A stretch of DNA of 64,000 bases from Candidatus Zixiibacteriota bacterium (GCA_030613505.1 JAUWLW010000011.1:945-64944), one strand, 5' to 3'; shown: positions 47,835-63,982, numbered from the stretch's first letter. The notes: generated by a model from the letters alone, not told the origin. A program made the numbers and translations.

Positions 47835-47856
47835 GGGGCGCAAAGCTTTGCGCCCC
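47835..47856. repeat. palindrome family member GGGGCGCAAAGCTTTGCGCCCC
   Basis: Perfect 22-bp palindrome abutting the cupin gene stop. Confidence 0.6.
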
Positions 47857-48194
47857 TACAGACGCCGATACCTGTCCGCCTCGTCGAAGATGTCCAACAG
47901 GCGGGAGCCCGCTTTAATGCGGGCGGTATGCGGGGCGCCGGCGGGAACGAAGTACGTATCGCCTCTCCGGTAAACGGCCTTCTCGCCGGCCATCGTCAGC
48001 TCGACCTCGCCGTCCAGGACGACGACCCACTGCGCCGCGTGCGACTCCTCGGGCGCGTCGACGTCGTCGTCGAACGCGACGAAGACCACCTGCTTACGCT
48101 CGCCCTGCAAGAGGTACGCACGCACGCGCTCGCCGGGGACGTCGGCCCGCGGCAGATTGGTTATGATTTCCGGAAAGAAGTCCTCTTGCACCAA
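47856..48194 (-). CDS. cupin-domain protein
   Basis: 112 aa. Conserved G(D)TY..P.G.PH. Confidence 0.65.
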   Translation of the reverse strand: MVQEDFFPEIITNLPRADVPGERVRAYLLQGERKQVVFVAFDDDVDAPEESHAAQWVVVLDGEVELTMAGEKAVYRRGDTYFVPAGAPHTARIKAGSRLLDIFDEADRYRRL

Positions 48195-48222
48195 GGTTCA
48201 ACCTCCTGTTTGAATAACGCCC

Positions 48223-48561
48223 CTACTTAGCGCGGTAGCGGTCCTCCTGGTCGAAGAGGTCCTGGAGGCTCGAGCCGCCTTTGATGCGCGCGCTGTGGGG
48301 GACGCCGGCGGCGATGGAGTACGTATCTCCTTTGTGGAAAGTATTCGTCTCGCCGCCGACGGTCAGCTCGATCTCGCCGTCCAGGACCGCGCCCCACTGC
48401 GCCGCGTGGTCGTGTTCGGGCACGTCGACGTCGTCGGCGAAGGTCATGAAGACGAGCTGCTTGCCGTCGCCCTGGAACAGGTACGCGCGTACGCCGGCGA
48501 GCGGAACGTCGGCCTGCGGCAACGTCGTAACGATATCCGGGAAGAAGTCCTCCTGGGGCAA
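48223..48561 (-). CDS. cupin-domain protein (tandem paralog)
   Basis: 112 aa, about 65% identical to 47856..48194. Confidence 0.65.
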   Translation of the reverse strand: MPQEDFFPDIVTTLPQADVPLAGVRAYLFQGDGKQLVFMTFADDVDVPEHDHAAQWGAVLDGEIELTVGGETNTFHKGDTYSIAAGVPHSARIKGGSSLQDLFDQEDRYRAK

Positions 48562-48622
48562 GGTTCAACCTCCAATTTCAAATACCTTTTGCGCCGGTCG
48601 GTAACAACCGGCGCCGCGGCGG

Positions 48623-49573
48623 TTACCGGAACAGCGCCTTCACCTTCCCCAGCGACGTGGGGGAGATGGCGGGGTTTTCCCATTTGAAATATTGTACCCG
48701 GTGGTGAGAATCAGCTATGTAAACGCGCTTGCCACTTGTCGGGAAAGCCACGTCCTCAGGGAAAACGAATTCCCCGTAAAATAAACCCAGGAAAGAACCT
48801 GTGGGCGTGAAATATTGGATACGACTATGGCCCATATCGGCGACGTAAACGTCGCCTTGGGCCGTAACGGCAACGCCACGAGGCATTAAGAATTGCCCGG
48901 CGCCATGCCCGGGAGACCCCCACATACCGATAAAAGACCCGTTAGCCGTGAAGTATTGTACGCGTTCGTTATCGATGTCTACGACGTAAACGTTGCCGCT
49001 GGGGGCCACCGCCAAGCCCCACAGACGGTTAAATTCGGCGGGGCCGGAGCCGGGGCTGCCCCACTTACCGAGGTACGAACCGGCGGAGGTGAAGTATTGG
49101 ACGCGGTCATTACCCCAATCGGCGACGTAAACGTTACCGCTCGAGGCGACGGCCACGCCGACGGGGAGGACAAATTGGCCGTTACCGGGGCCCAACGAAC
49201 CCCATTTGCCTAAAAAAGAACCCTCCGACGTGAAGTACTGAACGCGGTTATTGAAACGGTCGGCGACGTAAACGTCGCCGTTGTCGGCTACGGCTATGTG
49301 CATGGTTATCGTAAATTCGCCGTCGGCCGTACCGAGGCTACCCCACATACCTAAAAACGAACCCGTAGGCGTGAAATATTGAATGCGATGGTTGCCGTGG
49401 TCGGTCACGTATACGTTACCGCTGGGGGCTACCGCCAACCCGTAAATGTGTATGAACTCCCCTTTCCCGGAACCGTACGAACCCCACTGGCCCTCGAACA
49501 CCCACTCGCCCCAGGCGCAAAAGGCCGCCAACGCATACAGCGCCGCGGCCGTCATTATCGTCAGCTTCCTCAT
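48623..49573 (-). CDS. secreted NHL-repeat protein with C-terminal tag ...NPAISPTSLGKVKALFR
   Basis: Signal peptide MRKLTIMTAAALYALAAFCAWG. NHL repeats. Tag. Confidence 0.85.
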   Translation of the reverse strand: MRKLTIMTAAALYALAAFCAWGEWVFEGQWGSYGSGKGEFIHIYGLAVAPSGNVYVTDHGNHRIQYFTPTGSFLGMWGSLGTADGEFTITMHIAVADNGDVYVADRFNNRVQYFTSEGSFLGKWGSLGPGNGQFVLPVGVAVASSGNVYVADWGNDRVQYFTSAGSYLGKWGSPGSGPAEFNRLWGLAVAPSGNVYVVDIDNERVQYFTANGSFIGMWGSPGHGAGQFLMPRGVAVTAQGDVYVADMGHSRIQYFTPTGSFLGLFYGEFVFPEDVAFPTSGKRVYIADSHHRVQYFKWENPAISPTSLGKVKALFR

Positions 49574-49640
49574 TTCCCTTTACCTCCTCAAGCTACTGTC
49601 CTCTTAGATTAACTATAACAGGAAATACCGGACAGCGCCA

Positions 49641-49672
49641 ACTAAAAAAAGGGCCGACCTTAGGGTCGACCC
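49641..49672 (-). terminator. rho-independent terminator (GGGCCGACC-UUAG-GGUCGACCC + U7)
   Basis: Hairpin followed by a U-run on the minus sense. Confidence 0.55.
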
Positions 49673-49696
49673 GTACGTATATGAGCAAAAGGGAGG

Positions 49697-50659
49697 TTAT
49701 CTAAACAGCGCCTTCACGCGGCCGAGGGAGGCCGGCTCCACCGCGGGGTCGGAGGGGCGGAAGTACTGGATGCGGTCGTTATGGGTATCGGCCACGTAAA
49801 TTCTATCGCCCGCGGCGTTGGAAGCGATGCCCTCCGGTTCGTCGAATTGGCCGCGGCCCGTGCCGTACGTACCCCACTTGCCCAGGAAGGAGCCCGTAGC
49901 GGTGAAGTATTGGACGCGGTCGTTTTTGTTGTCGGTCACGAAAACGTGGTTACCGGCCGAGACGGCCACGCCGTACGGGTCGTCGAACCGGCCGTTGGCC
50001 GTGCCGTGCGAACCCCATTTGCCGAGGAACGAGCCCGTCGCCGTGAAGCGCTGGACGCGGTTGTTGTCGCCGTCGGCGACGTAGACGTTGCCGTTGGCCG
50101 CCACCGCTACGCCGACGGGGCCGTCGAACCGGCCGTTGGCCGTGCCGTGCTCGCCCCACTTGCCCAGGTAGGAGCCGGCGGAGTTGAAGTATTGGACGCG
50201 GTCGTTACCCCAATCGGCGACGTAAACGTTACCGCTCGAGGCGACGGCCACGCCGACGGGGAGGTAAAATTGGCCATTGCCGGGGCCCAACGAGCCCCAC
50301 TTGCCGAGGAACGAGCCGGTCGGCGTAAAATACTGCACCCGTTCGTTCATCCGGTCCGTTACGTAAACGTTGCCGTTCGGGCCCAGGGCTATGCCGGCGG
50401 GGAATTGGAACTGGCCGTCGCCGGAACCCGACGAGCCCCACTTCCCGTTGAAGGAACCGGTCGGGGTGAAATATTGGATCCGGTGGTTCCACTCGTCGGC
50501 TACGTAAACGTTGCCGCCCGGCGCCACGGCGACGCCGTCGGGCTGGTTGAACCGACCGTTGCCCGTTCCGGGCAATCCCCACTTGCCCGCGTAGACCCAG
50601 TCCGTGGCGGCGGCGGCCGCCGCGAGCGCCGCGGCCGTGATTATCGCGAGTTTCCTAAT
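49697..50659 (-). CDS. secreted NHL-repeat protein with tag ...DPAVEPASLGRVKALFR; canonical ATG replaced by ATT
   Basis: In-frame upstream extension IRKLAIITAAALAAAAAATDWVYAGKWG matches the signal peptides of paralogs. SD GGAGGT is intact. A TAA lies 2 codons upstream. The ORF track starts at TTG (50575). Confidence 0.55.
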   Translation of the reverse strand: MRKLAIITAAALAAAAAATDWVYAGKWGLPGTGNGRFNQPDGVAVAPGGNVYVADEWNHRIQYFTPTGSFNGKWGSSGSGDGQFQFPAGIALGPNGNVYVTDRMNERVQYFTPTGSFLGKWGSLGPGNGQFYLPVGVAVASSGNVYVADWGNDRVQYFNSAGSYLGKWGEHGTANGRFDGPVGVAVAANGNVYVADGDNNRVQRFTATGSFLGKWGSHGTANGRFDDPYGVAVSAGNHVFVTDNKNDRVQYFTATGSFLGKWGTYGTGRGQFDEPEGIASNAAGDRIYVADTHNDRIQYFRPSDPAVEPASLGRVKALFR

Positions 50660-50740
50660 TACCTGTTACCTCCTCGAGCTACCGCCCTCTGCGCATAAAT
50701 ATAATATAAAAACCTCGACGGCCACAAATAAAAACGGGCC

Positions 50741-50768
50741 GACCTTAAGGCCGGCGCGTACGTATATC
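50741..50768 (-). terminator. rho-independent terminator (GCCGGCC-UUAA-GGUCGGC + U5)
   Basis: Same terminator family as 49641 and 55062. Confidence 0.5.
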
Positions 50769-50826
50769 GCGGGGACAAGGGGCCGTTAACCGGCGGTTTT
50801 AACCGCCGGGTTGCCCCCTGTCCGAG

Positions 50827-50846
50827 CGGCCTTAGGGGCGCACAGC
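50827..50846. repeat. palindrome family member GGGCGCACAGCCGTGCGCCC
   Basis: Perfect 8+4+8 palindrome. Confidence 0.55.
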
Positions 50847-50902
50847 CGTGCGCCCTTACAAAAACTTTCCGCGTTTTCCGGTAACAACCGGCGCCACAGC
50901 GG

Positions 50903-50947
50903 TTACCGGAACAGCGCCCGGATACGGCCCGGCGAGGCGGCGACCCG
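50903..50947 (-). other. orphan, degenerate tag-coding remnant (...VAASPGRIRALFR*), out of frame with 50976..51986
   Basis: Reverse translation in the +1 frame relative to the NHL gene gives the tag. The NHL gene instead ends ...CGGCGGVLY*. Confidence 0.55.
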
Positions 50948-50975
50948 AATATAAACGCGCGTGAAGGCCACGCCC

Positions 50976-51986
50976 TCAGTATAGCACGCCGCCGCAGCCT
51001 CCGCACCCGTCGCGCGGCGTCCCGCCGCAAACAGGCGGCACCGGGATGGCGAAAAACTGGACCCGGTGGTTGCCGGAATCGACTACGTAAAGCAGTCCCT
51101 CGTACCGGGAGGCCGCGAGGCCGCGGGGGTGGTTGAACTCGCCGTCCCCGGCTCCCCGCCGGCCCCACGCGCCGACGAAATCGCCCGCGGAAGTGAACTC
51201 TTGAACCCGGCCGTTGCCCTTGTCGGCAACCAGTACGCCGTACCCGTCGCCCGTAACCGCTACCCCCTCCGGGAACCGAAACTCGCCGTGGGCCGAACCC
51301 TCCGAACCCCACGACGCAACGAAAGAACCGGCGGCGGTAAAACTCAGGACGCGGTGGCGTCCCCCGGCGCCGCCACCCTCGGTTACGTAAACCAGGTCGT
51401 CGCGCGGCGAGAGGGCGATGCCCAACGGGTAACCGAGGCGACCTTCGCCCTCGCCGGACCATTTTCCCAGGAAAACGCCGTCCGGGCCGAAACGTTGGAC
51501 GCGGCGGTTGAGAGTATCGACGACGTAGATCTCGCCGGAGAGGGGGTGGACGGCTACGCCGGTCGGGTACCGGAACTGGCCGTCGCCCTTCCCCTCCGAC
51601 CCGATCTGACCCAGAAACGAACCGGTGGAGGTGAAAATTTGGAGGCGGTGGTTGTACTTATCGGTGACGTACGTCGTCCCGTCCCAGGCCACGGCGACGC
51701 CGTGCGGCTCGCGGAACTGGCCGGGGCCGCCGCCCTCCGACCCCCACTTGCCGAGGAAGGAACCGCGCGAGGTGAAGTACTGGATCCGGTGGTTCAAGGT
51801 GTCGGCCACGTATACGTAGTGACGGTAAACGGCCACGCCGACGGGCGACAGGAATTGGCCGTCGCCCTTCCCCTCCGAACCCCACTGCCCCTTGTATTCG
51901 TAACGTCCGGGATCGCCGCGGGGCGTCGTCACCGTCGCGAGGACGAAAAGCAACGCCGCAGCAACTAAACGCCATAATGTTTTCAT
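50976..51986 (-). CDS. secreted NHL-repeat protein whose C-terminus has lost the tag (possible frameshifted or degraded end)
   Basis: Signal peptide MKTLWRLVAAALLFVLATVTTP. NHL repeats. Atypical Cys/Gly-rich C-terminus. A tag remnant lies 30-75 nt downstream. Confidence 0.65.
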   Translation of the reverse strand: MKTLWRLVAAALLFVLATVTTPRGDPGRYEYKGQWGSEGKGDGQFLSPVGVAVYRHYVYVADTLNHRIQYFTSRGSFLGKWGSEGGGPGQFREPHGVAVAWDGTTYVTDKYNHRLQIFTSTGSFLGQIGSEGKGDGQFRYPTGVAVHPLSGEIYVVDTLNRRVQRFGPDGVFLGKWSGEGEGRLGYPLGIALSPRDDLVYVTEGGGAGGRHRVLSFTAAGSFVASWGSEGSAHGEFRFPEGVAVTGDGYGVLVADKGNGRVQEFTSAGDFVGAWGRRGAGDGEFNHPRGLAASRYEGLLYVVDSGNHRVQFFAIPVPPVCGGTPRDGCGGCGGVLY

Positions 51987-51997
51987 CTTAACCCTCC

Positions 51998-52036
51998 TAC
52001 CGGGACAGCGCCCTCACGCGGCCCAGCGGAGGTACC
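51998..52036 (-). other. orphan tag-coding remnant (GKVPPLGRVRALSR*) between the T9SS-CTD gene and the next NHL gene
   Basis: +1 frame relative to the upstream gene. It ends at a TAG that directly abuts the SD of 50976..51986. Confidence 0.5.
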
Positions 52037-53975
52037 TTACCGTACCACCACCATACGCTTCGCCGCGGCCTCGCCGCCCGCCTCCAGCCGGTAAGTGTAG
52101 ACGCCCGGCGCGAGGTAAGACACGTCAAGCTTGAGCTTATTCGCGCCCGCGTCTGCCGACACGGCGCGGGAGGCGACCTTCCGCCCGGCCAGGTCGTAGA
52201 GCGCGAGCATGGCGTCGCAAGCCCCGGGGACCGAGAACGCGATCGTCGTGGCCGCTCGAGCCGGGTTGGGGACGTTCTGCGCCAGCGCGAAGGACGCTTT
52301 GCCGGCGCCGCCGGCGGTACAGTAAACCGGCCCGTAGGTCTCTTTGCCGCCGCTCAGGTCGACGGCCTCGAGCCAGAACTTATATTCCACGCCGCGGCCT
52401 ACTTCCCGGTCGAGGAAGTTATAAGGGGATTTGCCCGTGACGAGCGAAGCGTTGAGCCTGGCCTTAGCGTCGTCGCCCCCCGCGGAGGCGCGGTAGAGGT
52501 TGAAGCCGGCGCGGTTCCACTCGCCGGCGGTGGCCCAGCGGAGCAGGACGGCCTCGCCCTCGGCACGGGCGCCGAAGTAGTCCAGCTTGATGCCGATTCC
52601 CAAATCGGTATCGTAGCAGCAGGTATGGCGGCGGTCGTGGTTGTGCATGGGCCAGACCCGCGAGTCGGGGTCGCCGCCCAGGCGGAAAGCCTCGACGTAA
52701 CCGCCACCCCAATTAGAGGAGACGGTTACCATCTCAAGCGCGCCGTCGCGGTCAATATCCCATACGACCACCGAATTGCCGCTCGCGTCTCCCCTGGTCA
52801 CCACCGGGAAACCGGCCAGGGGAGAGCCGTCGTGGTTAAAACCTACAATATCGCCCCAATCTCCGTTCCCTACGATCTCGAAACGCCCGTCGCCGTCGAC
52901 GTCCGCCACCGCGGCGTTGCCTACGTCGCTTGCGCTGGAAACCGGAAAGCCGGGTATGGTGGTGCCGTCGTAATTCCACACGTAGACGTGGCCGCGCGAG
53001 TCATATTCGCGCGCTACGATTTCCAGATAGCCGTCGTTATCGATATCGGCCGCCGAGGCCGAAGCCCATATGCGTTTCACTTTTTTAGGCCACCCCGGCA
53101 AAACCTTGCCGTTTCCGCCCAGAAGGTAAAAATAACTCTGGCGCGGGTCCCACGACGGGGAAGCCGGCCCGGTCCCGAAAGCTATTTCCAAATCGCCGTC
53201 GTTGTCCCAATCCGCCAGCGTCGGCGCCGCGCCCGCCATGTACGTTTTCGCGTCGTGGAACAGGTACGGGAAGCCGCTCACGGCCGTACCGTCGGCGTTC
53301 CAGGCGAAAAGGGCGTGCCTACCCGCCCGGGTTTTACTCGAGAGGAGTATCTCCGGCTTGCGGTCGCCGTCTATGTCGCCTACCGCGAATCCGCTATAGG
53401 GCAAGCCGTATAGATTTTTGGGCCACCCGGGAAACCGCTTGCCGGCGCCGTCGTACACGCGGACCTTGCCGACGGGGTAGTTTCTCTCGGCGGCTATTAT
53501 CTCGCACGCGCCGTCGGCGTCCAGGTCCTCCAACGCTACCGTGCCGGATACGCGAATTTCATCTTTCGGAAACCCGCTCACGGCCTTGCCGTCGTGATGC
53601 CAGGCGTAAAGAGCGCCGCGGTCGCGGGCATACCAACCCCTGGCGCCGATTACGACTTCGAGGTCGCCGTCGCCATCTATATCGCCGACGGCCGGCGAGG
53701 ACGTGAAGTAATAACCGGACCGGTGGACCTGGGTCGGGAAGCCGGGGAATTCGGTCCCGTTGGGCCGCCAGACGTGACATTTCCCGTCGGCGGCGGCGAC
53801 CACTACGTCGTCCTTTCCGTTGCTATCGAGGTCGGCGACGACGGCCCCGTCGAGCGGCCGCAAAGAACCGGCTACGCCTATTGCTCTCTCCCAGAGCTTC
53901 ACCGGCCCTACGCCCCAAACGCCGAGGGGCGCGCACGCCGCGGCGCCGACGAAGCATAGAATTATCTTTCGCATG
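52037..53975 (-). CDS. FG-GAP/VCBS-repeat protein with T9SS type-A (FlgD Ig-like) C-terminal sorting domain
   Basis: Start trimmed to MRKIILCFVGAAACAPLGVWG. Many DxDGDG FG-GAP motifs. C-terminus LAQNVPNPARAATTIAFSVP...LYDLAGRKVA...GVYTYRLEAGG...KRMVVVR matches TIGR04183. Confidence 0.75.
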
Positions 53976-54030
53976 TCCCTACCCCTTTCCTCCTCGCCCC
54001 GGGACGCGGTCGCCGAGGCGGTATAAGCAA

Positions 54031-54050
54031 GGGCGCAAGGCCTTGCGCCC
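54031..54050. repeat. palindrome family member GGGCGCAAGGCCTTGCGCCC
   Basis: Perfect 20-bp palindrome abutting the stop of 54051..54992. Confidence 0.55.
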
Positions 54051-54992
54051 CTACCGGAACAACGCCCGCAGCCGTCCCAGCGACGTGGGCGCGACGGCGG
54101 GGTTAGCGTATTCGAAATATACGACCCTATGTCCACCATAGTCCGCCACGTAGACGCGACCTCCGTCCGGCGTCACCCGGACGCCGGTGGCCGAGAACCG
54201 GCAGAAAAAATTGAGGTAAGAACCGGAGGAGGTGTAGATATATATGCGTCGGTACCCCAACAGGCAGACGAACACGGTACCGTCCGTTCCCACGTCGATG
54301 CCCGTGGGGCCACTCATAAAGCCGGTGCCCCACTTGCCGAGGAAGGAGCCCGCGGCGGTGAAGTATTGCACGCGGTCGTTTTCGTACTCGGTGACGTAGA
54401 CGGTGCCGCCGCCGCTAAAGGCGATTTGGTCGGGCGTATTGAATTGGCCGTCGCCGGTACCGTACGAGCCCCACTTGCCGAGAAAGGACCCGGCGGCGGT
54501 GAAGTATTGGACGCGATGGTTTAGGCTGTCGGCTACGTAGACGTACCCGTTCGGCCCGCGCCGTACGCCGAACGGCTCGTTGAATTGGCCGTCACCCGAA
54601 CCCAACGCGCCCCATTTTCCCAGGAACGAACCCGTCGAGGTGAAGTATTGGACGCGGTGGTTGCCTATCTCGGAGACGTAGGCCGTGCCGTCGGCGGCGA
54701 CGTATATGCAGACCGGCTTGTCGAATTCGCCGTTGCCCGTGCCCCGCGAGCCCCATTTGCCGAGAAAGGACCCGGCGGCGGTGAAGTATTGGACGCGGTG
54801 GTTATGGGTGTCGGCGACGTAGACGTTACCGTTGGGCGCCAACGCCAAGCCGTACGGTATGTAAAACTGGCCGTCGCCCGACCCCTCGGAACCCCATCCG
54901 CCGGCCTTGACGTATCGGGGGGGCGAGGCCCAAACGCAAACGGCCGCCAGCGCGCCGAGCGCCGCGGCCGTAGTTATCGCGAGTTTCCTCAT
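54051..54992 (-). CDS. secreted NHL-repeat protein with tag ...NPAVAPTSLGRLRALFR
   Basis: MRKLAITTAAALGALAAVCVWA signal peptide. Confidence 0.85.
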   Translation of the reverse strand: MRKLAITTAAALGALAAVCVWASPPRYVKAGGWGSEGSGDGQFYIPYGLALAPNGNVYVADTHNHRVQYFTAAGSFLGKWGSRGTGNGEFDKPVCIYVAADGTAYVSEIGNHRVQYFTSTGSFLGKWGALGSGDGQFNEPFGVRRGPNGYVYVADSLNHRVQYFTAAGSFLGKWGSYGTGDGQFNTPDQIAFSGGGTVYVTEYENDRVQYFTAAGSFLGKWGTGFMSGPTGIDVGTDGTVFVCLLGYRRIYIYTSSGSYLNFFCRFSATGVRVTPDGGRVYVADYGGHRVVYFEYANPAVAPTSLGRLRALFR

Positions 54993-55061
54993 TTCCCTTT
55001 ACCTCCTCAAGCTACTGTCCTCTGGAAATAAATATAACATAAAAACCTCGACAGTTACGAA

Positions 55062-55090
55062 TAAAAATGCGCCGACCTGAAGGTCGGCCC
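55062..55090 (-). terminator. rho-independent terminator (GCCGACC-UUCA-GGUCGGC + U-run)
   Basis: Downstream of 55143..56243. Confidence 0.5.
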
Positions 55091-55142
55091 CTACAATTCC
55101 AGTTTAGCGGGGGCGGTTGAGGTCAACGGCGAGCTCCCCCGG

Positions 55143-56243: not shown

Positions 56244-56321
56244 ATCCCTACACGCCTGCGCCCCTCCGGCGCCTTAGCTTACATTATAACACAACGCCGG
56301 CGGCGAAGCAAATCGCGTAAA

Positions 56322-56366: not shown

Positions 56367-56376
56367 AAGCCCCTCC

Positions 56377-56964
56377 TTAACGAAATACCGCCCGGACGCG
56401 GCCCAGCGAGGTTGGGGAGACGGCGGGTTCGCCGGCGTCAACGACGACGTTGTCCAAGTCCCAGGCGTAAACGGCTACGTGCTGCGGGTGCCGGTTCTGG
56501 ACCCACACCTCGAAGCGGGCCTTCACCAGGCCCTCGTGCGTCGCGACCGCCGTACCCCTAAATACCCGCCACGTGGACGTCAACGGTATCCGGTGCGAGG
56601 CGAAAACCTCTTCCGGCTGGGTCGCGTAGAGCAACGAGAAGGTCGCCCGGTTCTCCGCCTCGAAGCCGCCGTGGCCGTACTTGTAGTCGAAACGAAACGC
56701 CAGCTCGGTTTTGGCGGGCACGGCGAAGGAGTAGGTATCCATCTTGGCCCACCGCTCGGCGCTCGCGGAGCTGGACGCCCACCCCACGGCGAACTTCCCC
56801 CACGGCCCGCCGGCTTCCGCGTCCCAGCCGGCCCCCGCGCCGCTCTTGCTCGACGTCCACCGGGGCGGCGGAACGCTTTGCTCAAACTTTTCGTCGACGT
56901 AGGTCGCGGCGTCCGCAAAGCCGGCCGCCGCCAACGCAGCTACTACTATAAGCCATAACTTCAC
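56377..56964 (-). CDS. secreted non-NHL protein (fold B) with tag ...EPAVSPTSLGRVRAVFR
   Basis: GTG start at 56964 with a perfect SD GGAGGTG 6 nt upstream. Signal peptide MKLWLIVVAALAAAGFADA. Confidence 0.6.
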   Translation of the reverse strand: MKLWLIVVAALAAAGFADAATYVDEKFEQSVPPPRWTSSKSGAGAGWDAEAGGPWGKFAVGWASSSASAERWAKMDTYSFAVPAKTELAFRFDYKYGHGGFEAENRATFSLLYATQPEEVFASHRIPLTSTWRVFRGTAVATHEGLVKARFEVWVQNRHPQHVAVYAWDLDNVVVDAGEPAVSPTSLGRVRAVFR

Positions 56965-57253
56965 GTTGGTCACCTCCGTGAGGCGATATCTCGCGCGAAG
57001 GCCGTCGGCGCCTTGCCGCCGGCCGAAAGGCATACGCCGAAAAACAACGCCAGGTCGGCCGTTTGGCCTACCTGGGCACTGTTCGCTTCCGCGCGGCTCT
57101 TGCCGCGACGTACCGGCGTTACGCCCGATTCCGTTTCCCCCGACATATCTTAGCCACCTTGACAAGCCAATATAAAATAATTCGTTGAATTAGTCAATTA
57201 AAAAGTGTCCCAATCATCAAACGGCGTTACGCCGCGCCCGCCCCTTCCGAATG

Positions 57254-57275
57254 GGGGCGTACAGCTGTACGCCCC
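57254..57275. repeat. palindrome family member GGGGCGTACAGCTGTACGCCCC
   Basis: Perfect 22-bp palindrome overlapping the stop codon by 1 nt. Upstream arm CGCCCC (57241-57246) can alternatively pair with it. Confidence 0.6.
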
Positions 57276-58240
57276 TACTTAAATATCGCCTTTACCCGGC
57301 CGAGGGAGGTGGGGGTAACGCGCGCCACGTTCCGGTTGAAGTACTGGACGCGGCAGTTGCCCGAGTCTCCGACGTACGCCCGGGCGCCTGATCCCGAAAC
57401 GGCAACGTGCGCCGGCTGTTCGAATTGACCTTCCCCGGCCCCCCTCGAGCCCCATTTGCCGAGGAAGGACCCGCTCGAGGTGAAGTATTGCACGCGGTGT
57501 AAGTCAATGTCCGTCACGAAGAAGTCGCCGTTAGGCGCGGCGGCGATGCCCCACGGCGCTAAGAACTCGCCGTCCCCGCGGCCCTCGCGGCCTACAACGC
57601 CGAGTAACGAACCCGCGGCGGTGAAGCACTGCACGCGAGAGTTCAGCGTATCCGCTACGTACACGCGGCCGTTGGGGCCGACGGCTACGCCGCAAGGCAT
57701 CACGAACTGCCCCGCCGCCGAGCCGTAGTACCCCCATTTGCCGAGAAACGAACCGGCGGGCGTGAAATATTGTATACGATGGTTCAAGGAATCCGCTACG
57801 TAGACGTTCCCGTTCCCCGCAACGGCGACATCTTCGGGGAGGAAAAGTTGACCGTCGCCGGAACCGAACGTGCCCCACTGGCCCAAGTACGAGCCGGCGG
57901 CGGTAAAGTACTGGATACGGTCATTACCCTCGTCCGCGACGTACACGCGGCCGCCACCGGCAACTGCCATGCCGGTGGGTTGTTCGAATTGGCCGTTACC
58001 AGAGCCGAACGAACCCCAACGCCCCAAGAACGAACCGGACGCGGTGAAGTATTGCACGCAATCGTTTGCGTGGTCAGATACGTAAACGTTACCCGTGGGC
58101 CCGACCGCAACGCCGCGAGTTGAGTTAAACTGGCCGTTCCCCGAACCGCGACTGCCCCATTGGCCCTCGTACGTCCAAGCGCCCCAGGCCGCGGCGGCCA
58201 CGAGCGCCGCCGCCGTCAAAACAACTAAAACCCTCTTCAC
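57275..58240 (-). CDS. secreted NHL-repeat protein with tag ...VTPTSLGRVKAIFK
   Basis: MKRVLVVLTAAALVAAAAWGA signal peptide. Confidence 0.85.
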   Translation of the reverse strand: MKRVLVVLTAAALVAAAAWGAWTYEGQWGSRGSGNGQFNSTRGVAVGPTGNVYVSDHANDCVQYFTASGSFLGRWGSFGSGNGQFEQPTGMAVAGGGRVYVADEGNDRIQYFTAAGSYLGQWGTFGSGDGQLFLPEDVAVAGNGNVYVADSLNHRIQYFTPAGSFLGKWGYYGSAAGQFVMPCGVAVGPNGRVYVADTLNSRVQCFTAAGSLLGVVGREGRGDGEFLAPWGIAAAPNGDFFVTDIDLHRVQYFTSSGSFLGKWGSRGAGEGQFEQPAHVAVSGSGARAYVGDSGNCRVQYFNRNVARVTPTSLGRVKAIFK

Positions 58241-58251
58241 CTCTTAACCTC

Positions 58252-59181
58252 CTACTTAAACAACGCCTTCACGCGGCCCAGCGAGGCCGGAACTACGGCC
58301 GTGGCCGTATCGTCGAAGTATTGGACGCGGCAGCCGTAGTAATCGGTGGCGTACGCGCGCACACCCGAGGGCGAAACGGCCACGTCATGGAGGAGGGTGA
58401 ATAGGCCGACACCTTCGCCGGGCCCGCCGAATATGCCGAGCCAGGAGCCGGTAGCGCTGAAGTAATCGACGCAGTGATTGTACGTATTGGCGACGAACAC
58501 TATCCCCGACCTCGAGACGTCGAGTCCGCGCGGGTCGTCGAATTCGCCGGGCCCCTCGCCCCATTTACCCCACGCACCCAGGAACGAGCCGGTAGGCGTG
58601 AAGTATTGGACGCGGCTGTTGCCGTTGTCGACTACGTAGACGGTACCGTTCAAGGCGACGGCGATACCGTCCGGGTTATAAAATTGGCCGGGGCCCGAAC
58701 CTTCGGAACCCCACGAACCGAGCAACGAGCCGGTGGGGGTATAATACGACACGCCGGGAAGCCAGAATTCGCTCACGTATACGTTGCCGTCGGGCGCCAC
58801 GGCCACGTCCATCGGGGAGGCGAGACAGCCCCAGGAACCGACGAACGAGCCCGTCGAGGTGTAGTAACGAACGACGCTGCCCTGGGAATCGATTACGTAG
58901 ACGACGCCGCGGCGCGAGACGTCGATGCCGCCGCCGCCGGGGTTATTCCATTGGCCGAGGTACGAGCCGGCGGAGGTGAAGCACTGAACCCTTTTCGTCC
59001 CCGAGTCGATTACGTAGACGTTGCCGTTGGGCGCGGTAGCCAAGGCGTAGGGGCCGGCGAACTCCCCCGGCCCGGACCCGTACTTACCCCACGTGCCCGC
59101 GTACTGGTACGTGGGAGCCGCGACCGAGGCCGCGGCGGCCGCGAGCGCGACTGCAGTTAAAACAACTAAACCCGTCTTCAT
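58252..59181 (-). CDS. secreted NHL-repeat protein with tag ...VVPASLGRVKALFK
   Basis: MKTGLVVLTAVALAAAAASVAAP signal peptide. Confidence 0.85.
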   Translation of the reverse strand: MKTGLVVLTAVALAAAAASVAAPTYQYAGTWGKYGSGPGEFAGPYALATAPNGNVYVIDSGTKRVQCFTSAGSYLGQWNNPGGGGIDVSRRGVVYVIDSQGSVVRYYTSTGSFVGSWGCLASPMDVAVAPDGNVYVSEFWLPGVSYYTPTGSLLGSWGSEGSGPGQFYNPDGIAVALNGTVYVVDNGNSRVQYFTPTGSFLGAWGKWGEGPGEFDDPRGLDVSRSGIVFVANTYNHCVDYFSATGSWLGIFGGPGEGVGLFTLLHDVAVSPSGVRAYATDYYGCRVQYFDDTATAVVPASLGRVKALFK

Positions 59182-59500
59182 CGTTCTACCTCCTCTTCGA
59201 TTTATGAACGCTTTCTTTTATTGCGCCGTTGAGCCGGTTGTGAATAAAAAAGGCCGGGCCGGCGCGGAGCCGAACCCGGATAGTATTCTCTTATGAGCGA
59301 CCGGACCGTCGGCCGCGTTCGTTACGCACTCCCGTTTCCTCCGATCCGGGCATAACCCTGACCTCCTTAGGAAATCGCCCGGTTAAATTTCTACGCCAAC
59401 CCTATGTGGACATTATGACACCGGCCTGTACCCAAGTCAAGCAAAAACTATCCTAATCATTAATTATTTAGTAAGGTTGACATATGCTTATTTTAGTACG

Positions 59501-59524
59501 GAAAAAAGGGGCCGCGCGGGCCCC
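59501..59524 (-). terminator. rho-independent terminator GGGGCCGCGCGGGCCCC + U6
   Basis: Hairpin with AAAAAA on the plus strand (U6 on the minus sense). Confidence 0.6.
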
Positions 59525-59533
59525 TGCCGAATG

Positions 59534-59555
59534 GGGGCGTACAGCTGTACGCCCC
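59534..59555. repeat. palindrome family member GGGGCGTACAGCTGTACGCCCC
   Basis: Identical to the copies at 57254 and 63961. Confidence 0.6.
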
Positions 59556-59611
59556 TACCGGAACAACGCCTTCACGCGGCCGAGGGAGGTGGGCGCAACG
59601 CCGGGCCTTCT
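59555..59611 (-). other. orphan tag-coding remnant (...RRPGVAPTSLGRVKALFR*) without an NHL body
   Basis: Out of frame and downstream of the membrane-protein stop at 59629. The ORF-track 59555..59968 ORF is otherwise Arg-rich junk. Confidence 0.55.
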
Positions 59612-59628
59612 CGCGTTGCGCGCCGATC

Positions 59629-60117
59629 TCAACATCCTGATAATTGGCTCAACCATATCAGTAAACCGCAAATTAATCCCACCGCGCCGCTGGTTCCGCC
59701 GAGGACGACGGTCCATTTTACCGCGCGCCAACCGGGGTATTCGTAGAGTAGCTCGCCCCGGGCGGCGGCCCCGGCGCTCGCGAAGGCGCCGTAAACGAGA
59801 AGTCCTATCCAAACGACGCCCCCCAACGTACCGCCGAAGAGGATTATTATGAAGATGACTTGCCCGAACCCTTCGGCGGCGTCGAGTCGCCCGAATATCG
59901 TCGCCACCGCGGCCCAACCTGCGACCACATAGTAGAAGGCGAGCGTCGTCGCCGCCACGGCGAGCCAAAGCTCGAGGGCGCGAAAGAGATGGTGCCGGAC
60001 GAAGGTATTAACGAAAGCTGCGGGGATCGCGAGGGGTAGCGCAACCAGGAAATACGAGCCGGCGGCTACTGACCGCGCGGCCTTATTCGATTCGACGACG
60101 TCGCGAGGCGAAGACAT
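59629..60117 (-). CDS. polytopic membrane protein, hypothetical
   Basis: Start trimmed to MSSPRDVV.... Four or more hydrophobic helices. The upstream 160 aa of the ORF-track ORF are Arg-rich GC artefact. Confidence 0.5.
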   Translation of the reverse strand: MSSPRDVVESNKAARSVAAGSYFLVALPLAIPAAFVNTFVRHHLFRALELWLAVAATTLAFYYVVAGWAAVATIFGRLDAAEGFGQVIFIIILFGGTLGGVVWIGLLVYGAFASAGAAARGELLYEYPGWRAVKWTVVLGGTSGAVGLICGLLIWLSQLSGC

Positions 60118-60164
60118 GGTAAACGTTGCCGCTAAGGCGAGTGTGATACCCGCGGCCCAGGCCG

Positions 60165-60720
60165 CTAGACGCGCACCGCCATCGTGACGCACGCCTCCGG
60201 GCAGACGTCGGCGCACAGGCCGCAGCCGTAGCACTTCTCGTCGGCGACGGCCAGCTTGCCGTCGGCTATCTCGCGGGCGCCGAAGTAGCACACGTCGACG
60301 CAGGTCCCGCAGGCCGCGCACGCGCCCATATCGATGCGGGCGGCGAACATCCCCCGGTCGCACGCCGCCGTCTCCACGTCCGACCGGAAGTAGTAGCAGC
60401 AGTCGTCGCAGCAGAAGCAGATCCCCTGGACGCGGGTTTTGTCCTCCTCGTACCGGAACGGCCGGACGACGAGGCGCTTGTCCTCCGCCTCCTTCATTAT
60501 CCCGGCGACGAAGTCGGCGCCTACCTCGCGGAAGTCGGAGCCGGTCCCGGCCATCTGCGTGTCGAAGAAGAGGCACACGTCGGCGCGGGAGCGTTGACAC
60601 CCCGGCTCACCCTCACGGCAGCCGCAGTTGGAGACCCAGAACTTGTCGAACCCGGCGATCAGCTCCTCCGCCTCCTCGCGCGTCGCGACGTAGTGGAAAT
60701 GCAGCTCGTCGTCTTTCATA
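60165..60720 (-). CDS. 4Fe-4S dicluster ferredoxin-type domain protein
   Basis: Start at MKDDELHF (SD GGAGGT). CAACGTCVDVC and CYGCGLCADVCP motifs plus an extra Cys cluster. Confidence 0.65.
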
Positions 60721-60835
60721 ATATTACCTCCAAGCGTTAACAAGGGGCTTAAGCCCCCTGGCCGGCGCGCCGCCGTCAAGGGGGAAAGCCTCCCGCGGCG
60801 CCGCTACGTTACGAAAGGAAATACGAAGCCGTATA

Positions 60836-61783
60836 TTAAAACGCGCGGACGACCGACGGTAGTATTTGGACCGCGAACGCGAAGGCAAAGGGTAGCAGGA
60901 CGGACGATAAAAATATAATAATAAAAAACGAGGTGGCGTCGAATTTCCTCTCGGCGACGTCGTCCGGCGCAAGCTGCCGCCCCGCTACTAACGCGAGGTA
61001 AAAAAGCGGCAACCACGCGAAAATCGTCGCGGCAAGGCCGACGTCGTAGCGTCGGGAAAAACACGCCACTATCAGCGCCGCCGGCAACGCGGCAAGCAAC
61101 CCCCAGCGCACGGGCCGCCACACCGGCGCGAGTTCCCTCGTTAACGCCCGGCCAAAATGATACCGTCGGGCGGTCGCGCCGCGGTACCGCGTTACGACGA
61201 GAGCATACAAGAGGAAGTAGGCCGCGGCGATGGCGGCGGCGACGGCGAGGTAATGGCCTATTATGAAACTCCATACCCGCGTAGGCTCTTCGGCCCGGTA
61301 AGAAACCGCCAGGCCGCCAACGGCGACGGCCGCCAAGAGAGAAACGGGCCAGAAGCCGAAGACCACCGCCACGTCGAGTAGTTTCTTTTTCCCCTCCTCG
61401 GTCGCCGGCACCGCGGCCCGTTGGAGGGCGTACGGCGCGCGAAGTAAAAAAGACGCGTTAATCCACAACGCCGCTAAGTAAAAAGCGCCGAGCGCCATAC
61501 GGCTCAGGTCGCCGGGGAGGTCGACAAGCTCGTACAGGAAAGAGGCGACGACGAAAACGGTCACGTAACTCGCTACGCGGAAAAACTCCCGCACCGTAAC
61601 GGGCGACGAATCGCCCGCAGAAGCGAAGGCCTTTAAAAGCGGGCCGGCGGCAACTGCGAAATACAACGCCGTGAGCGCCAGCCACGGGTAAGGTAAATAA
61701 AAGAGCAACCCGGCGTACGCCGCGGCCGCCGTCGCGTACCATACTACGTAAACCGACCTGGATACTTTGGCCTCGGCCTCCAT
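60836..61783 (-). CDS. polytopic membrane protein, hypothetical
   Basis: 315 aa with about 8 hydrophobic segments. Confidence 0.55.
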   Translation of the reverse strand: MEAEAKVSRSVYVVWYATAAAAYAGLLFYLPYPWLALTALYFAVAAGPLLKAFASAGDSSPVTVREFFRVASYVTVFVVASFLYELVDLPGDLSRMALGAFYLAALWINASFLLRAPYALQRAAVPATEEGKKKLLDVAVVFGFWPVSLLAAVAVGGLAVSYRAEEPTRVWSFIIGHYLAVAAAIAAAYFLLYALVVTRYRGATARRYHFGRALTRELAPVWRPVRWGLLAALPAALIVACFSRRYDVGLAATIFAWLPLFYLALVAGRQLAPDDVAERKFDATSFFIIIFLSSVLLPFAFAFAVQILPSVVRAF

Positions 61784-61796
61784 AACGTAAATATGC

Positions 61797-61832
61797 GAAA
61801 AAGGCGCGCCGCCGTCAAGGGCGGAGCGTCGC
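61797..61832. repeat. 36-bp direct repeat GAAAAAGGCGCGCCGCCGTCAAGGGCGGAGCGTCGC (left copy)
   Basis: 28/28 identical core with 63132..63167. Partial copies at 60764-60785 and 63903-63925. Confidence 0.65.
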
Positions 61833-61949
61833 GGGCCGGTATATTGTCATTTAAATACGGCAATAACGTAAAAATAGAATTGCGAAAAACACAAATTCTT
61901 TCCCTGGAATTGCGAAAAACCGCTCTTAATTACAAATTTCAGTCATAAC

Positions 61950-63134
61950 TCACTCAGAAAAAAGGATTTCGAAAATCGGATCGGCGATAAAAGCCTTCGG
62001 ATATTTAATTTCCCCTAACTGACTTAAGATACCCAATTCGACTAATCTATTTACGCAATCCCTCGCAACGCTATATTTAACGCTTAATATTACCGCCGCT
62101 GATTTATAAGTAATAACCGGATTTCCTATTAAAGCTTCTGCTAGCTCAACGTCAGAAGCCGATGCCCTGGGGCGCTTTATCAGCTCGCGCCAATCCTTCC
62201 TAAGTGCGTCCAAAGCGTTAATACGCCTTCCAACGTCCGCAGCTTGGGTTCTAATAGCTTCCAGGAAAAAAAGTATCCATTCGCGCCACGCACCTTTGGT
62301 ACTAACTTCAAACATCAAATCACAGTAGGCCTCTTTATTATTTTCAAAGTAACGGCTCAGGTGTAGTAACGGGGTGGGTAAAAGGCCCCAATAAACTAAT
62401 AAAAATATAACTAACAACCTGCCTATCCGGCCGTTCCCGTCCCGGAACGGATGGATCGTTTCGAATTGGTAGTGGATAAACGCAAGCCTTACCAACTTTG
62501 GATAATTGTCATTCGCGTGTAGGTATTTCTCAAACGCGTCCAGGCAATTTTCAATTTCCGGCGGTGGCGGCGGTATAAAAACGGCTTCTTGAACCGTCCC
62601 GCGTCCTCTTACGCCTACCTGGAGGCGCCGGAACTGACCTAACTCTGCTTCCCCTCCACGCACCCCGGTCATTAGTATTTTGTGCAATTCGCGTATTAAC
62701 CTTAAACTCAAAGGAGTTTTCGTTTGGTCCAAAGCATACTCAATCGCGGCGACGTAATTAAATACTTCCTTTAAGGCGGCAGCCCGGGGGTCGGTTTCAA
62801 ACCCCGGTAGTTTAAGTTGCCCAGCTTCGTACGCGTACAGGTCTTTAATATCGACGACGGTACCCTCAATGATCGATCCTAGGCGCGCCTCCCGGCGAAT
62901 AAAAGGCCGAACGAATAGGTTAGCATTCTCGACTTTTCTACCCAGGCCGTCCAACGCGCCCAAAGCGAGCGAAGCCTCCTCGACCGCGCCAGTTAAATCG
63001 CTCAAATCTATGCGAGGCGGAAGAGGCTTAGGTATAAACGCCCAATCGCCTCCGTATTTCGTCGAAATCGGGACGAGTTTACCGGGGGCGTCTTCCGTAA
63101 AAAGGCCAGCGTCCATCGAACACGATAATATCAA
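61950..63134 (-). CDS. Fic-family protein (AMPylation motif HPFRDGNGRIGR)
   Basis: 394 aa with FIHYQFETIHPFRDGNGRIGRLL. A degenerate inhibitory-helix-like GSIIEG. C-terminal wHTH-like region. GC roughly 45% versus roughly 68% in the flanks. Confidence 0.85.
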   Translation of the reverse strand: MILSCSMDAGLFTEDAPGKLVPISTKYGGDWAFIPKPLPPRIDLSDLTGAVEEASLALGALDGLGRKVENANLFVRPFIRREARLGSIIEGTVVDIKDLYAYEAGQLKLPGFETDPRAAALKEVFNYVAAIEYALDQTKTPLSLRLIRELHKILMTGVRGGEAELGQFRRLQVGVRGRGTVQEAVFIPPPPPEIENCLDAFEKYLHANDNYPKLVRLAFIHYQFETIHPFRDGNGRIGRLLVIFLLVYWGLLPTPLLHLSRYFENNKEAYCDLMFEVSTKGAWREWILFFLEAIRTQAADVGRRINALDALRKDWRELIKRPRASASDVELAEALIGNPVITYKSAAVILSVKYSVARDCVNRLVELGILSQLGEIKYPKAFIADPIFEILFSE

Positions 63135-63167
63135 AAAAGGCGCGCCGCCGTCAAGGGCGGACGTCGC
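63132..63167. repeat. 36-bp direct repeat (right copy)
   Basis: CAAAAAAGGCGCGCCGCCGTCAAGGGCGGACGTCGC. Confidence 0.65.
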
Positions 63168-63803
63168 TCAGTCGGTTACTCCCGGCGGCAGGTGTACCGC
63201 GAAGGTGCAGCGCTCGTCGCCCCGCATGACGGACCGGAGGACCTCGACGCGCACCGGCCTCTCGACGATGAACTCCCAGATACGGCCGTACCACCCGCCG
63301 CCGCAGCAGCAGTAGGGCTCCGGCGCGGGCGTCGTCGCCGCCCCGGCCCGGGCCAGCGGGCAGTGGCAATAGGCGACCCGCCTCTCGTCCGGCGTTTGGG
63401 CGGCCGCGAACGCCTCGGCGTCGCCGGGGGCCTTGGTCTCGTAGATGACGTCGCCCTCGCGGTAAGGGCGGGAGTGCTTTTCGGGGTCGCGGGCCATGGC
63501 CTCGAAGACCGCGTCCACGCCGCCGGCCTCTCGGTAAATTTTCCGCAGCTCGAGCAGCGGCTCGTCGCCGAACTCCTCGACGAAGACGCAGGCCCGGCGT
63601 TCCATTATCTTCTCGCGCGTCGCGACGTCGGGGACGGCCTCGGCCAGCCGCTCCATCGCCAGCCGCGACCAGGCCGCGCGCTCCTCGGGGGAGGCTTCGG
63701 CCAGCTCCCGGTGGCCCTCCAGGACCCGCTCGCTGACGCCCGGGCCGGCGTGCTCGTCGATAAGCCGGGCCCACTTGGCCATCTTTTCCTCCAACCAACC
63801 CAT
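63168..63803 (-). CDS. hypothetical Cys-rich protein
   Basis: 211 aa with CHCPLARA...CCCGGGWY. No recognisable family. Confidence 0.45.
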   Translation of the reverse strand: MGWLEEKMAKWARLIDEHAGPGVSERVLEGHRELAEASPEERAAWSRLAMERLAEAVPDVATREKIMERRACVFVEEFGDEPLLELRKIYREAGGVDAVFEAMARDPEKHSRPYREGDVIYETKAPGDAEAFAAAQTPDERRVAYCHCPLARAGAATTPAPEPYCCCGGGWYGRIWEFIVERPVRVEVLRSVMRGDERCTFAVHLPPGVTD

Positions 63804-63841
63804 ACGTGACCTCCTTGCCTACAAGGTGACCGGCCCGCCCC

Positions 63842-63863
63842 GGGGCGCACAGCGGTGCGCCCC
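63842..63863. repeat. palindrome family member GGGGCGCACAGCGGTGCGCCCC (in the 5' UTR of 63168..63803)
   Basis: Perfect 9+4+9 palindrome, 40 nt upstream of the ATG. Confidence 0.55.
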
Positions 63864-63889
63864 TATAAAAACAAACGTTGCCGGCGGCC

Positions 63890-63919
63890 ATTATAGGGCG
63901 GCGGCGGCTCGGCGTCAAG
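63890..63919 (-). promoter_or_regulatory. sigma70-like promoter TTGACG-18-TATAAT on the minus strand
   Basis: -35 at 63919-63914, -10 at 63895-63890. Confidence 0.35.
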
Positions 63920-63928
63920 GGGGGATGA

Positions 63929-63950
63929 AAAAGGGGCCGCAGGGGCCCCT
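63929..63950 (-). terminator. rho-independent terminator GGGGCCCCUGCGGCCCC + U5
   Basis: Same architecture as 59501..59524. Confidence 0.55.
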
Positions 63951-63960
63951 TCCGAAGTAG

Positions 63961-63982
63961 GGGCGTACAGCTGTACGCCCCT
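63961..63982. repeat. palindrome family member GGGGCGTACAGCTGTACGCCCC
   Basis: Third identical copy. Confidence 0.6.

Follow-up and report, generated by a model that had tools for sequence, protein, structure and literature searches.

GTAG-footed hairpins at gene 3′ ends in a Candidatus Zixiibacteriota contig as very probable REP elements of the RAYT-associated type

We analyzed a 64-kb stretch of DNA from a Candidatus Zixiibacteriota bacterium (GCA_030613505.1 JAUWLW010000011.1:945-64944), here called the window, in which all positions are counted from the first letter. Between 46.8 and 64 kb all genes lie on the minus strand, among them a pair of cupin genes and several genes for NHL-repeat proteins that share a short C-terminal motif (the tag motif), and interspersed with these genes is a family of short G+C-rich palindromes. 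The pattern GGGCG-N4-GC-N4-CGCCC has seven exact matches in the window, starting at 47836, 50836, 54031, 57255, 59535, 63843, and 63961, and nine matches with at most one mismatch, compared to 1.98 ± 1.44 in 100 dinucleotide-preserving shuffles, none of which reached nine. The seven-copy family reported in an initial annotation is therefore real, and six of its coordinates stand; the copy placed at 50827 starts at 50836. From their anatomy and from the company that the same sequence keeps in other genomes, we consider it very probable that the seven palindromes are GTAG-tagged repetitive extragenic palindromic (REP) elements of the kind associated with REP-associated tyrosine transposases (RAYTs).

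Seven palindromes and their feet

Five of the seven copies are full palindromes in a perfect-hairpin scan (Table 1). Copies 50836 and 63843 have stems of 8 to 9 bp around a nonpalindromic 4-nt center (AGCC and AGCG, respectively), so that the original description of every copy as a perfect palindrome holds for five of them. Perfect stems range from 8 to 14 bp across the window copies, and the bottom of the stem is GGG(G)/CCC(C) in all. The plus-strand core is TACAGCTGTA in three copies and CAAAGCTTTG, CAAGGCCTTG, CACAGCCGTG, or CACAGCGGTG in the remaining four. These cores vary at three stem positions, and at every difference the change in one arm is compensated in the other, as had been proposed. 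An RNA structure check, suggested along with the initial annotation, gave a hairpin of −15.3 to −18.6 kcal/mol for each copy folded alone.

Adjoining the stem on the minus strand of all seven copies is a four-base foot, GTAG in five and degenerate in two (GTAA at 50836 and ATAG at 63843). The foot faces the gene side, the copies lying just 3′ of minus-strand genes, and in five window cases its TAG is the stop codon; stop codons are abutted because the element's own GTAG foot supplies the TAG. Apart from the shared stop codon, all seven copies are extragenic. A double foot is found in one of the seven (63957-63984). Copies 63843 and 63961, the two nearest to each other, lie 118 bp apart and both have their gene-side foot on the minus strand.

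Five copies had been described as abutting the stops of tag-family genes. This was borne out at 54031 and 57255, where the genes are intact, at 63961, where the gene is cut by the window end, and, in the form of an orphan relic only, at 59535; it fails at 47836, which follows a cupin gene with no tag, and at 50836, which lies 45 nt past a frameshifted relic. The separate canonical terminator that was said to follow these copies is present after 59535. Copy 63961 is followed by a terminator-like G+C hairpin and T-run, homologous to the terminator after 59535 and without a listing in a consensus terminator scan, and downstream of 57255 there is only a weak hairpin. The copy at 63843 (63842 in the initial annotation) had been assigned to a 5′ untranslated region (UTR), which is made plausible by a promoter-like site upstream of it, the best of the region; the copy is probably in a 5′ UTR.

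Table 1. Palindrome copies, associated signals, and tag-motif instances in the 64-kb window
Feature	Position	Strand	Description
REP copy 1	47835..47859	−	22-bp palindrome GGGGCGCAAAGCTTTGCGCCCC (47835-47856); GTAG foot 47856-47859; TAG 47856-47858 is the stop of cupin gene 47856-48194; next gene 13 nt downstream, ATG near 47822-47820
REP copy 2	50836..50859	−	8-bp stem GGGCGCAC/GTGCGCCC, asymmetric loop AGCC; degenerate foot GTAA 50856-50859; 45 nt downstream of frameshifted tag relic ASPGRIRALFR-stop
REP copy 3	54031..54054	−	20-bp palindrome GGGCGCAAGGCCTTGCGCCC (54031-54050); GTAG foot 54051-54054; TAG is the stop of NHL-repeat tag gene 54051-54992 (...PTSLGRLRALFR-stop)
REP copy 4	57254..57278	−	22-bp palindrome GGGGCGTACAGCTGTACGCCCC (57254-57275); GTAG foot 57275-57278; TAG is the stop of NHL-repeat tag gene 57275-58240 (...PTSLGRVKAIFK-stop); then CCATTCGGAAGGGGCGGGCGCGGC, weak hairpin
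REP copy 5	59534..59558	−	22-bp palindrome (59534-59555), core as copy 4; GTAG foot 59555-59558; TAG closes orphan 17-residue tag relic (...VAPTSLGRVKALFR-stop) behind unrelated membrane-protein open reading frame (ORF) ending at 59629
REP copy 6	63842..63866	−	9-bp stem, asymmetric plus-strand loop AGCG; degenerate foot ATAG 63863-63866; between promoter-like site and start of gene 63168-63803
REP copy 7	63957..63984	−	Double-foot 28-bp perfect palindrome GTAGGGGCGTACAGCTGTACGCCCCTAC; TAG 63981-63983 closes tag gene (...KALFR-stop) cut by window end
Sigma-70-like promoter match	63890..63918	−	TTGACG-17-TATAAT, 11/12; upstream of copy 6
Intrinsic terminator-like hairpin and T-run	59507..59525	−	AGGGGCCCGCGCGGCCCCT TTTTTCC, 8 nt downstream of copy 5; canonical
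Terminator-like hairpin	63931..63951	−	AAGGGGCC-CCTGC-GGCCCCTT then TTTCAT, 9 nt downstream of copy 7
Half-site	48218..48226	−	GTAGGGGCG without 3′ arm; its TAG is the stop of second cupin gene 48223-48561, then only GGGCG
Tag-motif instance	48623-48661	−	TAA or TAG end, no palindrome
Tag-motif instance	49697-49735	−	TAA or TAG end, no palindrome
Tag-motif instance	54051-54089	−	
Tag-motif instance	56377-56415	−	TAA or TAG end, no palindrome
Tag-motif instance	57275-57313	−	
Tag-motif instance	58252-58290	−	TAA or TAG end, no palindrome
Tag-motif instance	59555-59593	−	
Tag-motif instance	10804-10842	+	

The same hairpin in related contigs, other phyla, and transposase genes

We used a lineage sample in which the back-translated C-terminal tag motif followed by TAR was scanned against metagenome contigs (at least 120 loci, 654 kb, 149 motif ends). 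Close relatives of the window among these contigs are L166 (92 to 95% identity), L208 (86 to 93%), L145 (87%), L160 (81%), L194 (92%), and L121 (99.9%). For covariation, sites in the window and the 654 kb were picked on GTAGGGGCG alone. Of these 87 sites, 46 fit the 9-bp stem register with no more than one mismatch, and in a set of 46 distinct sequences, filtered to at most three stem mismatches, double-sided changes occur at the three variable pairs in 20, 12, and 21 sequences. Since the filter biases the percentage of paired positions, the covariation score is the informative measure; it is 0.318, compared to 0.105 in shuffled sets (none of 500 reaches 0.318) and at most 0.099 with slid partners. 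The covariation check suggested earlier thus points to a constraint on the hairpin. Stems are Watson-Crick paired on both strands, and G-U pairs are few.

Orthologous sites show the element keeping its place while its sequence changes. Orthologs of the cupin junction retain the REP with different cores: L166 shares CAAAGCTTTG with the window, L145 has CAAGGCCTTG, and L160 has CACAGCCGTG. At the site of copy 50836, the tag of L194 is intact and ends in TAA; 45 nt later comes a GTAG-footed REP with the core ACTGGCAAGT. The foot is therefore part of the REP and not of the gene, and the GTAA of the window is a mutated foot. In L208 the REP is kept with one stem mismatch at the 59535 site, has the foot GTAG and a different loop at the 63843 site, and belongs to a different REP sub-family at the 63961 site; both degenerate window feet thus have GTAG in an ortholog.

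The 654 kb of tag-centered contigs hold 41 perfect 8-bp-stem hairpins starting with GGGCG, 31 of them with at least one GTAG foot. Six to eight of the 41 abut a tag motif, three abut cupin orthologs, and the rest lie elsewhere, and the element is therefore not specific to the tag family. Seen from the genes, 87 of the 149 motif ends are TAA and 62 are TAG; GGGCG follows 23 of the TAG ends, with an intact hairpin in 6 to 8 of these and a decayed or nested appearance in the others (e.g., GTAGgggcgcgttGTAGGGGCGTAACGCGTTACGCCCCTAC). In the window and lineage set, whose sites are not independent of each other, a co-oriented gene end lies within 150 nt upstream of the foot for 21 of 34 single-foot REPs, and the distance from gene end to foot is exactly 0 in 12 of 29. 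Nested or tandem REP remnants are present at L165 2765-2805, L212 2185-2225, L179 ~1150-1190, and L190 2863-2905, where a complete GTAG-footed REP comes a few bases after a truncated GTAGGGGCG... stub, an arrangement that suggests repeated insertion at one place.

The sequence also extends far beyond this lineage. With the degenerate pattern GGGGCGYAMRGCNKTRCGCCCC, a scan of one genome per species places the 22- to 28-bp sequence GTAGGGGCG...CGCCCCTAC in at least 120 genome loci across phyla, where about nine matches would be expected by chance (our own estimate, for uniform base composition). Phyla and classes among the matches listed include Anaerolineae, Dehalococcoidia, Chloroflexia, many Nostocales, Acidobacteriota, Armatimonadota, Nitrospirota, Omnitrophica, Verrucomicrobiota, and others. 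Nostoc, Chloroflexota, and other phyla have identical 22-mers set between unrelated flanks, and four of the five window core variants recur identically, the core of copy 63843 (CACAGCGGTG) not being among the variants listed. Since the pattern permitted mismatches and did not impose complementarity, pairing of the stem in these copies is a fair test. Among 128 copies listed, pair 7-16 is Watson-Crick in 123 and pair 9-14 in all 128 (A-T in 31 and C-G in 97), while the central pair 10-13 is Watson-Crick in only 73 and non-Watson-Crick in 55. Stem pairs covary at these loci, and the four central bases do not. What is conserved is therefore the combination of a 9-bp stem, a 4-nt loop, and a foot, and not a palindrome as such. 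Nearly all cross-phylum copies listed are flanked by GTA...TAC, giving the 28-bp unit GTAGGGGCGCACGGCCGTGCGCCCCTAC; among the matches listed, GTAG is present on 178 of 234 oriented sides and most copies have a double foot. By a crude measure, 21 of 190 cross-phylum cases listed have an ORF of 80 codons or more that ends at the foot TAG, no better than random GTAG sites (9%).

Two further settings were seen among these loci. In Nostocales (Nostoc/Nodularia; L011, L028, L037, L041, L056, L089, L091, L094, and L102), the identical palindrome lies at many loci inside a longer repeated unit, ...ttttcaggtaaatagaccacgcgGTAGGGGCG..CGCCCCTACgacagatgtggttcaaatac..., which looks like a MITE (a miniature transposable element with inverted repeats) or a REPIN-like composite. 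In a Chloroflexia metagenome-assembled genome (L030 1263-2440), a REP lies within a gene for an oligopeptide-type ABC-transporter ATPase and reads GAHSRAPL; the ORF is split into two frames there, and the case is either an in-gene REP insertion or a disrupted gene.

An all-versus-all comparison of ORFs from the at least 120 cross-phylum loci returned no single protein family neighboring the palindrome, except for generic ABC and two-component genes and a RAYT-like cluster, which surfaced as ORFs overlapping the palindrome itself. Its members are Y1/HUH proteins with a Pfam Y1_Tnp hit, encoded in L117, L065, L072, L023, and L048, with the REP-associated tyrosine transposase as their top NCBIfam hit, and carry the motifs YFVT.C, MPNH[ILF]HG, SLG..(A/V)GFK, and WQRNYYEH..EYI.NNP. 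Two REPs lie inside the RAYT-like gene of L117; L065 has one inside and one 13 bp away, L072 has two inside and one 34 bp away, and those of L023 and L048 are 99 bp away and at the gene edge, respectively. Altogether, a REP lies inside or within 99 bp of a RAYT-like gene at five of the at least 120 loci, those outside being 1 to 99 bp from the gene. The REPs inside these genes translate in frame as GAHGRAPL.

The tag motif and the rest of the window

Genes 54051-54992 and 57275-58240 have the C-terminal motif P[TA]SLGR[VL][KR]A[LI]F[RK] in common. A wider form, P[TA]SLG[RK][VIL][KR]A[LIVM][FY][RKQ]-stop, is found at the end of many NHL-repeat proteins that bear a signal peptide and of a single 262-residue protein without a Pfam hit, and further instances occur in L123 to L242. 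No Pfam or NCBIfam model covers it. Third codon positions of the motif vary while the amino acids are kept; it is therefore a true peptide motif, selected as peptide, and the same variability rules out that the tag is the translated arm of a longer mobile DNA element. The motif may be an undescribed sorting or anchoring signal.

The neighboring protein 52037-54139 has a type IX secretion system (T9SS) C-terminal domain and not the tag, and past the stop of its gene lies a relic of the motif, PPLGRVRALSR-stop (~51999-52029). A second relic, ASPGRIRALFR-stop, lies out of frame after the NHL gene 50976-51986 (~50902-50935), and a third, VAPTSLGRVKALFR-stop, behind the membrane-protein ORF (59555-59605). 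Tag relics after genes that do not use the motif could reflect gene decay, sequencing frameshifts, or copying of 3′ modules.

The two cupin genes (47856-48194 and 48223-48561) are tandem paralogs of 112 residues each, with a full REP at the end of the first. After the second there is a half-site (Table 1), which recurs after the second cupin gene of L166 and in L145 has a loose alignment to sequence that is not REP; it is possibly, though not certainly, the relic of a REP. Amid the NHL genes lie a gene for a Fic/DOC-family protein with a Fic_N domain (61950-63134) and an ORF with a 4Fe-4S ferredoxin domain (60165-60779).

Pattern and hairpin scans returned no REP copies in the first 47 kb of the window, prophage genes included. 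An integrase gene (3671-4690) adjoins a tRNA (4808-4881) there, and phage genes occupy 33692-46216, encoding the major head protein (33692-34618), head maturation protease (35168-36802), Mu-type portal (43627-44925), and large terminase (44912-46216). Many flanking ORFs lack a family match. It is a reasonable inference that these 47 kb are recently acquired phage DNA lacking the REPs of the host.

Identity of the element and alternative explanations

The initial annotation left the family as an uncharacterized REP-like, operator-like, or RNA-processing element, and the first of these options is the right one. The foot is that which defines the GTAG REP super-family of Di Nocera, De Gregorio & Rocco 2013 (BMC Genomics 14:522; PMC3733652), which includes the REPs of E. 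coli and Pseudomonas and the SMAGs of Stenotrophomonas and is reported in Cyanobacteria, Chloroflexi, and PVC bacteria (Planctomycetes, Verrucomicrobia, and Chlamydiae) besides Proteobacteria. GTAG REPs form sub-families with complementary stem changes, lie mostly downstream of ORFs, and often supply the TAG stop codon to flanking ORFs (PMC3733652). The window elements resemble them in being short G+C-rich stem-loops with GTAG at one end (stems are 6 to 13 bp and loops 2 to 4 nt in the class), in their complementary sub-family changes, in lying downstream of co-oriented ORFs, and in the use of the foot TAG as a stop. In density, we can offer as proxies 7 copies in the 64-kb window and 41 perfect-stem copies in the 654 kb of tag-centered related contigs; the class typically has more than 100 dispersed copies per genome. 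The window consensus was not found in the accessible portions of the text and supplements of PMC3733652, and a full-text literature search with six exact 20-mers returned no paper.

The transposase genes narrow the assignment. TnpA_REP subclass 2.4, equivalent to RAYT group 4, has the HuH motif NH[IFV]H, the W motif WQ, and the Y motif YIxNNP; its REPs have three G-C pairs at the bottom of the stem and a double foot (5′ GT[AG]G, 3′ C[TC]AC), are inserted within tnpA_REP between HuH and Y with the frame kept, and are distributed over Cyanobacteria, Bacteroidetes, and various phyla (PMC6006769). Like those described for this subclass (Quentin et al. 2018, BMC Genomics 19:475; Bertels et al. 2017), the elements studied here have at least three G-C pairs at the stem bottom, a double foot, in-frame copies within the transposase gene between HuH (NH[IFV]H) and Y (YIxNNP), and a scatter over Cyanobacteria and various phyla; the subclass features were seen in L117, L065, L072, and L048, all with the identical palindrome. 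Unlike in the subclass, the double foot is limited to a single copy in the window. The window REPs are most likely of the RAYT group 4 (subclass 2.4) kind. Given the GTAG super-family and the identical sequences in or beside RAYT-like genes, the label of an uncharacterized family does not hold.

Several observations weigh against this assignment. The RAYT-like proteins score 50 to 65 bits against an NCBIfam equivalog cutoff of 80, and tblastn with two RAYT-like queries found no RAYT gene, either in the window or among the related metagenome loci (654 kb). All seven window copies are confined to 16 kb. They are also singletons, with no REPIN-style inverted pairs and, unlike the GTAG REPs of PMC3733652, no head-to-head or tail-to-tail dimers. 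Finally, the lineage sample was ascertained via TAR-ending tag genes, which inflates the share of REPs at tag stops.

The unit consists of a 5′ GTAG foot, a G+C-rich 9-bp stem (GGGGCGnnn) directly adjoining it, and a loop of 4 nt that is mostly RGCN; some units have an inverted second foot, CTAC. Single-stranded REP hairpins with their GTAG are bound and cleaved by TnpA_REP (cited in PMC6006769), and by the established biochemistry of RAYTs and REPs the hairpin and foot in single-stranded DNA would be the substrate for transposase binding and cutting here as well. A need to fold in single-stranded DNA would keep stems complementary while their sequence drifts or is swapped between sub-families, and would account for strict Watson-Crick pairing on both strands and the rarity of G-U pairs. 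In the transcript, each copy would present an RNA hairpin of about −17 kcal/mol beginning within the stop codon, which, if E. coli REPs are a guide, would shield the mRNA at its 3′ end. In E. coli, a REP located no more than 15 nt from a stop makes ribosomes stall and reduces translation of the gene upstream (Liang, Rudd & Deutscher 2015, as summarized in PMC12306157). As in E. coli, a stable hairpin lies closer than 16 nt to the stop (here 0 nt, with the G of the stop codon paired in the stem); the sequence family is different, those of E. coli having bulged and longer stems, and any such effect here is an analogy only. Like Rickettsia palindromic elements and other in-gene REPs, the element lies in frame in coding genes at other loci (the RAYT genes and the L030 ATPase), although, unlike Rickettsia palindromic elements, no window copy extends into a gene beyond the stop codon.

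A number of other known elements were considered and rejected. A REPIN in the sense of Bertels & Rainey is two inverted REPs with a short spacer, and the window copies are singletons. None of the seven hairpins is followed by a T-run, as an intrinsic terminator would be, and separate terminators lie 8 to 10 nt on after 59535 and 63961. Recoding through a SECIS- or PYLIS-like (pyrrolysine) element is rejected since the frame past the TAG enters a terminator, a promoter, or the next ribosome-binding site, with no long downstream ORF. The length and architecture are wrong for an integron attC site, and there is no array as in CRISPR repeats. The target-site hairpin of a diversity-generating retroelement (DGR) was a further candidate, set aside when the elements had been recognized as REPs.

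The alternative that survives best, though we regard it as unlikely, is a dedicated cis-regulatory RNA of the tag genes that would act in 3′-end processing, stability, or translation-coupled attenuation, the 3′ arm pairing alternatively with the terminator. Four copies begin inside the stop codon of tag ORFs, a terminator follows within 8 to 10 nt of two or three copies, and distance 0 from the stop is over-represented in the lineage. A third arm reported by the initial annotation exists as sequence (CGCCCC at 57239-57244, the 5′ start of the next downstream hairpin on the minus strand), and constrained folds with the 5′ arm blocked, mimicking a ribosome at termination, have the 3′ arm CGCCCC paired with the GGGGC that comes next in two of three module copies. 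This pairing is not consistent across copies, however, being absent for 59535, and is expected between two G+C-rich hairpins anyway. Moreover, the sequence is also found behind cupin genes, within a 5′ UTR, 45 nt past a stop, at many unrelated sites in related contigs, and in many phyla whose sampled loci have no neighboring gene in common, which argues against specificity for the tag family; an intact copy is present at only 6 to 8 of the 149 tag ends, and the 87 ending in TAA have none. Stems that are Watson-Crick on both strands with few G-U pairs are what a DNA-level constraint would be expected to leave. Rfam has no match either, the whole window returning only tRNA at the gathering threshold and the region 57100-59700 returning nothing at E ≤ 1.

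We also considered whether the palindromes are merely a conserved 3′ flank of recently duplicated paralogs, with compensation arising incidentally from template switching that corrects palindromes. When the seven copies are aligned together with their flanks, this idea finds some footing: copies 57255, 59535, and 63961 have an identical core and are homologous on both sides, with the tag end upstream and TTCGG and the terminator downstream. A near-identical module of ~100 bp, comprising tag end, REP (core TACAGCTGTA), TTCGG, and terminator, is thus present three times (57165-57345, 59445-59625, and 63871-64000), and these copies appear to be one module that was duplicated or homogenized by gene conversion. 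Consistent with this, window 63927-63996 aligns better to the paralogous (59535-type) site of L208 than to the orthologous one, which suggests gene conversion or duplication of the module between 3′ ends. As an account of the whole family, it explains only three copies, since on at least one side the flanks of 47836, 50836, 54031, and 63843 are unrelated. The palindrome is also carried by RAYT genes, and the cross-phylum 22-mers with unrelated flanks already largely refute this explanation, which we consider very improbable. Least probable of all is an operator for a symmetric dimeric DNA-binding protein regulating these loci, for which the perfect dyad symmetry of five copies and the one copy between a promoter-like site and a start codon could be cited, but six of seven copies lie at gene 3′ ends and not at promoters, the center is asymmetric in two of seven window copies and in 55 of 128 listed cross-phylum copies, the half-site varies between copies at three positions, which one regulator would not tolerate, and the element is spread over unrelated contexts in many phyla.

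We therefore return to RAYT-associated REPs, and regard the element as an ordinary REP of a known kind in an unstudied, uncultured lineage and not as a new regulatory system. A small chance remains that it is more than passive, either because a subclass 2.4 RAYT targets or retargets G-TA(A/G) stops or because hairpin and terminator have been co-opted as a translation-coupled switch. Such targeting would explain why distance 0 is the commonest and why different sub-families are found at equivalent stop sites, and a co-opted switch, if true, would set the output of the secreted NHL tag proteins.

The finding leaves current concepts unchanged. For annotation, it means that these hairpins are to be labeled as REP elements and not as terminators, operators, or recoding signals, and that in genes whose TAG stop lies in a REP foot the C terminus may have been set by the element. 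The stop-embedded hairpins also provide a natural set, outside Proteobacteria, for the E. coli rule that a REP within 15 nt of the stop lowers translation. The occurrence of one near-invariant REP in Chloroflexota, in Nostocales, and in several candidate lineages is compatible with RAYT group 4 and its REPs having spread horizontally.

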